Positions 48,984 through 49,010 of a stretch of DNA of 57,407 nt are shown here, one piece after another. Position 1 is the first letter of the stretch. Each line of letters opens with the position of its first letter. The notes below the pieces were generated by a model. That model saw only the letters and a program-made list of their open reading frames with translations, searched no databases and was not told the DNA's origin. The position numbers and the translations under genes are program-made. The DNA lies in NCBI RefSeq assembly GCF_003334315.1, contig NZ_QOWR01000028.1; one strand, written 5' to 3'. The DNA is from Escherichia coli (GTDB lineage: Bacteria > Pseudomonadota > Gammaproteobacteria > Enterobacterales > Enterobacteriaceae).

Positions 48984-49010
48984 ATATTCATAATATTCAT
49001 AATATTCATA
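48984..49010. repeat. 3 perfect tandem copies of a 9-bp unit (ATATTCATA) in the dcuD-nanR intergenic region
   Basis: ATATTCATAATATTCATAATATTCATA read directly from sequence. Confidence 0.9.

Follow-up and report, generated by a model that had tools for sequence, protein, structure and literature searches.

VNTR or minisatellite-type loci, as used in MLVA typing, change by slipped-strand insertion and deletion of whole head-to-tail units. In M. tuberculosis, the copy number of tandem repeats in promoters has been reported as phase-variable (PMC12817950), with a tandem repeat lying upstream of genes and its number of units varying between isolates. A third kind of short direct repeat is found at the nan locus itself, where three NanR dimers bind a three-hexamer operator cooperatively (PMC8012715). 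We compared these systems with a perfect array of three 9-bp units that lies between dcuD and nanR in a 57,407-nt stretch of E. coli DNA (contig NZ_QOWR01000028.1; hereafter the window). The array is very probably the product of a recent, near-neutral slipped-strand gain of one unit (+9 bp) on a repeat that normally has two. The eye-catching perfect repeat would thus be explained as a strain-specific slippage allele, and is not to be read as a designed regulatory array.

Direct reading of the sequence from 48600 to 49500 placed three perfect head-to-tail ATATTCATA units at 48984-49010, in the context GAAC-ATATTCATA-ATATTCATA-ATATTCATA-ATGCTTG. Tandem Repeats Finder returned the same array as 48984-49012 with a period of 9, 3.2 copies, 100% matches and a score of 58, the last copy being a partial AT. 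Both results bear out the perfect threefold 9-bp repeat claimed in a preliminary description of this DNA. Perfect arrays of three 9-bp units are expected by chance ~5e-8 times in the spacer and 8e-7 times in the whole window, and the 57-kb window holds no second perfect array of at least three copies with a 5-15 bp unit. Searching with an 18-mer gave no further copy, and 0 of 100 shuffles had any match. The triple repeat is real and not due to chance, and the extra unit is not assignable to one position among the three.

The array lies, as had been described, in an AT-rich spacer between the divergent genes dcuD (minus strand) and nanR (plus strand). The spacer had been put at 370 bp; measured between the dcuD ATG at 48815 (enclosing ORF 47448..48833) and the nanR ATG at 49204 it is 388 bp in the window (48816-49203), and it is 379 bp in K-12. 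Its G+C content is 32%, falling to 26.5% over the 200 bp that surround the array, against ~52% in the flanking genes. The preliminary description had raised the possibility that dcuD is silenced through this region. AT-rich DNA is typical of targets of the silencing protein H-NS, and the 26.5-32% found here, over at least 200 bp and well below the genome average, is the low G+C of such targets. RefSeq (PGAP) calls the dcuD orthologue dcuC, 'anaerobic C4-dicarboxylate transporter DcuC', its position between sspB and nanR being that of dcuD; this naming trap affects searches by gene name. No expression of dcuD was seen under most conditions tested (PMC6414658, citing Janausch & Unden 1999), and the gene has been described as transcriptionally dormant (PMC12886548). 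We found no description of a repeat, transcription start or binding site in the dcuD-nanR spacer in the literature searched, and no transcription-start entries for it in the available parts of the supplements of PMC3415461 and PMC4782308, searched by gene name and coordinate prefix. The features of the locus are collected in Table 1.

Table 1. Positions in the window of the array, its flanking genes, the conserved blocks of the spacer and the listed σ54 promoter.
Feature	Position	Strand	Basis or remark
Tandem array, three perfect ATATTCATA units and a partial AT	48984..49012		Three-unit allele of a normally two-unit repeat
dcuD, DcuC-family C4-dicarboxylate carrier, 455 aa	47448..48815	-	ORF list and RefSeq orthologue
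nanR, GntR-type repressor of the sialic acid regulon	49204..49995	+	ORF list and RefSeq orthologue
Block A, ATGTTATATTTTT invariant, then TTTATGG, GTnTTTT	48872..48928		Alignment; 60-110 bp upstream of the dcuD start
Block B, TTATGAT-N14-CATATTC-N4-(A/T)TTCA	48960..49001		Alignment; contains the first two units
Block C, with TGnTAnGAT at 49160-49168 (TGATAGGAT)	49135..49170	+	Alignment; adjoins nanR
TGGCAG-N7-CTCTT, listed σ54 promoter for dcuD	49122..49137	-	9 of 12 consensus positions

The survey of unit number took in complete genomes of E. coli only, 5,426 in all; the allele counts rest on BLAST spans and identity bands, not on each genome read, and are accurate within a few genomes. The spacer was present in ~4,230 genomes. 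Two units were found in ~4,190, including K-12, B and O157, a single unit in ~35, mostly of the O145:H28 clone, and three units in five (FDAARGOS_448, Z1002, BS15R-A, G5 and MEW), the window strain apart; four or more units were found in none of the 5,426. A 397-bp spacer probe matched 4,374 genomes, and 58 of the 59 full-length rows of a spread sample spanned 388 bp, the length that corresponds to two units and that includes K-12 MG1655 and O157:H7. With a 107-bp probe centred on the array only five genomes spanned 107 (or 106) bp, equivalent to three units, and the next-best matches listed, BL21 and REL606 among them, all spanned 98 bp, equivalent to two. About 37 genomes matched a synthetic one-unit probe at 95% or more; the 25 matches listed were all full length and mostly from the O145:H28 clone, in which the one-unit allele reads GAACAC-ATTCATA-ATGCTTG. 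A four-unit probe with K-12 flanks was covered over at least 80% of its length only by the five three-unit genomes, and therefore no genome carries four or more units.

In K-12 the array reads ACATTCATA-ATATTCATA-AT, the first of its two units being imperfect, and three other Escherichia species also have two units at the same place. By our mapping, the K-12 spacer lies at about 3,374,491-3,374,869 of U00096.3 and the two-unit core near 3,374,682-3,374,701. The perfect triple repeat is an exceptional derived allele and not the normal state. The preliminary description had suggested slipped-strand copy-number variation and had called for a comparison of copy number across E. coli genomes. The number proved not to be invariant, since whole-unit alleles of one, two and three units exist and the gain is recurrent, yet the variation is rare, with more than 99% of the spacer-bearing genomes carrying two units.

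The flanks of the three-unit alleles differ from one another by 0-13 positions, and the five three-unit genomes represent at least three, and probably four, haplotypes. An exact two-unit counterpart was found for three of the three-unit alleles, those of G5, FDAARGOS_448 and the window. The flanks of G5 show no differences from those of K-12, which has two units, and the haplotype of FDAARGOS_448 is often met in a two-unit form, at least 10 matches having the 97.7% identity that corresponds to the 9-bp gap alone. The window from 43000 to 55000 matches several genomes at 99.9% over 12,001 nt, against a span of 11,992 nt in their records, and therefore essentially only the 9-bp unit differs in those genomes. 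A unit has thus been gained repeatedly, at the tips of the tree, and lost on one or more occasions, as expected of replication slippage on a direct repeat of 20 bp. Whole-unit alleles combined with gain on different haplotypes are the signature of slipped-strand mispairing, the mechanism that we infer from this allele pattern.

The array shares with VNTRs its head-to-tail copies of 100% identity, its whole-unit alleles of one, two and three units, the recurrence of the same gain on unrelated haplotypes, and its intergenic AT-rich site. Unlike them it is barely polymorphic, since more than 99% of genomes share one allele and no allele exceeds three units, and for this reason it would be a poor typing marker. 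Conservation of its two-unit core across genera is also out of the ordinary for a VNTR that is purely neutral.

A scan for DcuD with one genome per species yielded three other Escherichia and 15 Citrobacter species with a divergent dcuD-nanR arrangement, whose spacers measure 356-387 bp. Nineteen dcuD-nanR spacers were aligned with MAFFT and conservation was computed for each column. The identity of Citrobacter to the window averaged 53% per spacer column, and three zones, blocks A, B and C, stand out (Table 1). Block A probably serves as the promoter or regulatory region proximal to dcuD, although no -35 element can be recognised in it. In block B, at least 90% of the 15 Citrobacter sequences retain the TTATGAT motif and both TTC triplets, which are 9 bp apart, and Citrobacter has CATATTC-N4-TTTCA at the same distance from dcuD. 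The block also holds a -10-like TATGAT on the plus strand at 48964-48969, by consensus match only. This conservation suggests that block B is probably a cis-regulatory element upstream of dcuD; because the block is kept in Citrobacter, the degenerate two-unit structure is an old one, probably under constraint. In the 19-sequence alignment the third unit falls opposite gaps, on the side of block B that faces nanR. Beyond that edge, the stretch between blocks B and C is ~20 bp shorter in most Citrobacter and carries a 12-bp deletion in Escherichia sp. MOD1-EC7003. A block of ~40 bp upstream of dcuD, common to Escherichia and Citrobacter, could guide the search for a regulator of this gene.

A slipped-strand origin of the third unit would operate as follows. 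Two adjacent near-identical units (ATATTCATAATATTCATAAT, with 20 bp of self-similarity) would let the nascent strand misalign by one unit during replication, occasionally giving a gain (three units) or a loss (one unit), and a one-unit duplication of this kind would have arisen very recently in the lineage of the window strain. The two-unit core belongs to a ~40-bp block, ~170 bp upstream of dcuD, that predates the split between Escherichia and Citrobacter and probably serves the poorly expressed dcuD as a binding site or promoter element. Inserted at the nanR-facing edge of this block, the extra unit leaves all conserved elements from there to dcuD unaltered and lengthens only a stretch that already varies in length and sequence between species. 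Since the additional 9 bp alters nothing from block B to dcuD and lengthens an already variable stretch, we expect expression of dcuD and nanR to change little, if at all. Some observations weigh against near-neutrality: a successful clone, O145:H28, is fixed for the one-unit allele and more than 99% of genomes hold the two-unit state, both of which are also compatible with selection on unit number; and the array is located within a conserved block or on its border, where one more TATTCA could add a binding site.

Such a site is the premise of the reading in which each unit binds one protomer or dimer of a regulator and the third unit alters the control of dcuD or of a distal nanR promoter. 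We regard this as unlikely, given that the third unit is missing from more than 99% of genomes and that the units are non-identical in K-12 and in Citrobacter, even though the two-unit core, notably the TTC triplets 9 bp apart, is kept as far as Citrobacter and the reported transcriptional silence of dcuD makes a repressor site upstream plausible. The nearest precedent is the NanR (GGTATA)3 operator upstream of nanA, only 1 kb away, which Tandem Repeats Finder reported at 50059-50081 as GGTATAACA in 2.7 copies with a period of 8. Operator and array share three direct repeats with a period of 8-9 bp at the nan locus, within 1.1 kb of each other, and differ in that the array unit carries TATTCA in place of GGTATA and that two units are usual at the array. 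The NanR hexamer GGTATA occurs on neither strand of the spacer (48816-49203), and the main text of the NanR genomic SELEX study does not report the dcuD-nanR spacer. Scans of the array for σ54, Fur, CRP, FNR, IHF, NarL, ArcA and ArgR, and for NanR, the H-NS high-affinity site, Fis, Lrp and NagC, gave nothing notable; these consensus scans serve as a lead only. ArgR-like matches in the array were rejected, as they stem from a TGAAT half-site in the wrong orientation. Phased binding of a regulator at about one helical turn per repeat, a further suggestion of the preliminary description, gained no support: 9 bp is not one turn and three units drift by ~4.5 bp, none of the transcription factor consensus sequences scanned fits the array, and the third unit is not conserved.

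A related reading, to which we attach slightly less weight again, takes the two-unit core as the operator of a dcuD silencer, with one, two and three units as rare regulatory alleles for dcuD or the distal nanR promoter. Two further motifs were noted. Positions 49025-49042 (TCTTATGAATAATTCAAT) hold a palindrome, TGAATAATTCA, together with the unit in inverted orientation, TATGAATAA, at 49028-49036; the pair was dropped because it is not conserved even in K-12 (TATAAATAA), and it is not kept in E. whittamii. A GalR-like site has been predicted inside K-12 dcuD (GTGGGATCGAGTACAC; PMC5110547), and its counterpart in the window, at 48665-48680, differs from K-12 by one base.

Searches for promoters and structured RNAs were also carried out across the spacer. 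Scanning for promoter and terminator consensus sequences yielded 3 promoter-like matches where chance predicts 2.5, and these matches are therefore not evidence; one of the three draws on the TATGAT that is invariant in block B. An Rfam scan of 48600-49400 at E values up to 1 returned no family. RegulonDB lists a σ54 promoter for dcuD (PMC3118216), given as TGGCAG-N7-CTCTT and called non-canonical (PMC12316311). This motif has no -12 GC and shows poor conservation among other Escherichia species, and the array lies outside it; if the listed promoter is real, the array would lie inside a dcuD 5' leader of ~300 nt. The main text of a σ54 ChIP-seq study mentions dcuD only once, as the gene nearest to site OA06 at a distance of 2,253 bp (PMC4591121). 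An exact match to the OA06 sequence, TTGGTATGAAAATTGTA (PMC4591121), is found at 51068-51084 on the minus strand, in the nanA-nanT spacer and antisense to the nan operon. Searching the whole window with a σ54 pattern gave 291 matches where ~300 are expected, and the pattern search is thus uninformative.

As for nanR, dcuD and the AT-rich spacer (window ~47448-49120) are absent from 1,040 of the 5,426 genomes, in which a sspB-nanR junction is present and nanR follows sspB directly; in TUM11352, sspB is followed by 107 bp and then nanR, with no dcuD. A 1.5-kb probe correspondingly matched ~1,090 genomes solely from the nanR start codon onward. Because these 1,040 genomes keep nanR without the spacer DNA, the array is not needed for nanR. 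Only the nanR-proximal ~85 nt are homologous between the arrangements with and without dcuD, at ~60% identity. This stretch contains CTGTG-n-TA-n-GAT, within which TGnTAnGAT resembles an extended -10 element and is kept in E. coli with and without dcuD, in other Escherichia and in Citrobacter. We infer that TGnTAnGAT is the putative core promoter of nanR, ~150 bp downstream of the array; no published mapping of this candidate was found in the literature searched. The dcuD-less state looks derived, because Citrobacter and the other Escherichia species have dcuD, and the genomes concerned are suspected to belong to phylogroup B2. Around a fifth of the complete E. coli genomes lack dcuD and the spacer and retain the extended -10-like element, which points to the probable nanR promoter.

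The array might alternatively be a contingency locus, in which frequent reversible change of unit number switches dcuD or nanR on and off. Like the phase-variable promoter repeats described for M. tuberculosis, it is a tandem repeat upstream of genes with a unit number that differs between isolates, and its whole-unit alleles and recurrent gain are in keeping with such a locus. Phase variation is nonetheless very improbable here. With two units in more than 99% of ~4,230 genomes, three in five and more in none, the locus is neither hypervariable nor phase-variable, and many alleles among close relatives were not found in the population. The one-unit allele is stably inherited within a clone, and the tract, which never exceeds three units, falls well below the length of those known to slip frequently. 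Unlike repeats responsible for promoter phase variation, the array shows no sign of high-frequency switching, is not a long tract and is not placed between the -35 and -10 hexamers of any convincing promoter.

We give next to no credence to the repeat being the 5' end of a small minus-strand protein gene (48896-49009; MNIMNIMNMFLQNNHKRIFFNEK...), in which each unit would add an in-frame Met-Asn-Ile: the 37-codon frame does start inside the array, is open in all Escherichia sequences examined and has a repeat unit that is a multiple of three, but its length varies among 17, 28, 33, 34, 37 and 59 aa in Escherichia with an unconserved C-terminus and falls to 11-16 aa in Citrobacter, several sequences of which lack the anchor motif; the frame tolerates a frameshift in MEW, a premature stop in O145 and read-through in FDAARGOS_448; no Shine-Dalgarno precedes any of the ATG codons; and by our own count the differences between Escherichia and Citrobacter fall 8/4/5 at codon positions 1/2/3, with no third-position excess. 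This small ORF was rejected on its unconserved length and frame and the lack of a third-position substitution bias. That the third unit is an artefact of how the source of the window was sequenced or assembled is equally hard to credit, for although the window allele with the window flanks occurs in 0 complete RefSeq E. coli genomes, five independent complete genomes carry a three-unit allele at the same site, and a 9-bp insertion that is not homopolymeric is an atypical sequencing error.

Larger rearrangements have also been recorded at this locus. IS1 insertions lie inside the dcuD-nanR spacer of the natural isolates GmM062 and AR17.2B, and a selected IS5 insertion in the spacer has been described in a preprint (10.64898/2026.02.02.703383); the spacer seems to be a target for insertion sequences. 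In strain WEM25 an IS1-flanked deletion fuses dcuD to gltD, with loss of the nan operon. Elsewhere in the window, a G+C-rich repeat at 31369-31615 consists of 2.7 copies of a 91-bp unit at 91% identity, contains palindromes of the GCCGGATGCGGCGTGAACGCC type and resembles a REP/BIME cluster.
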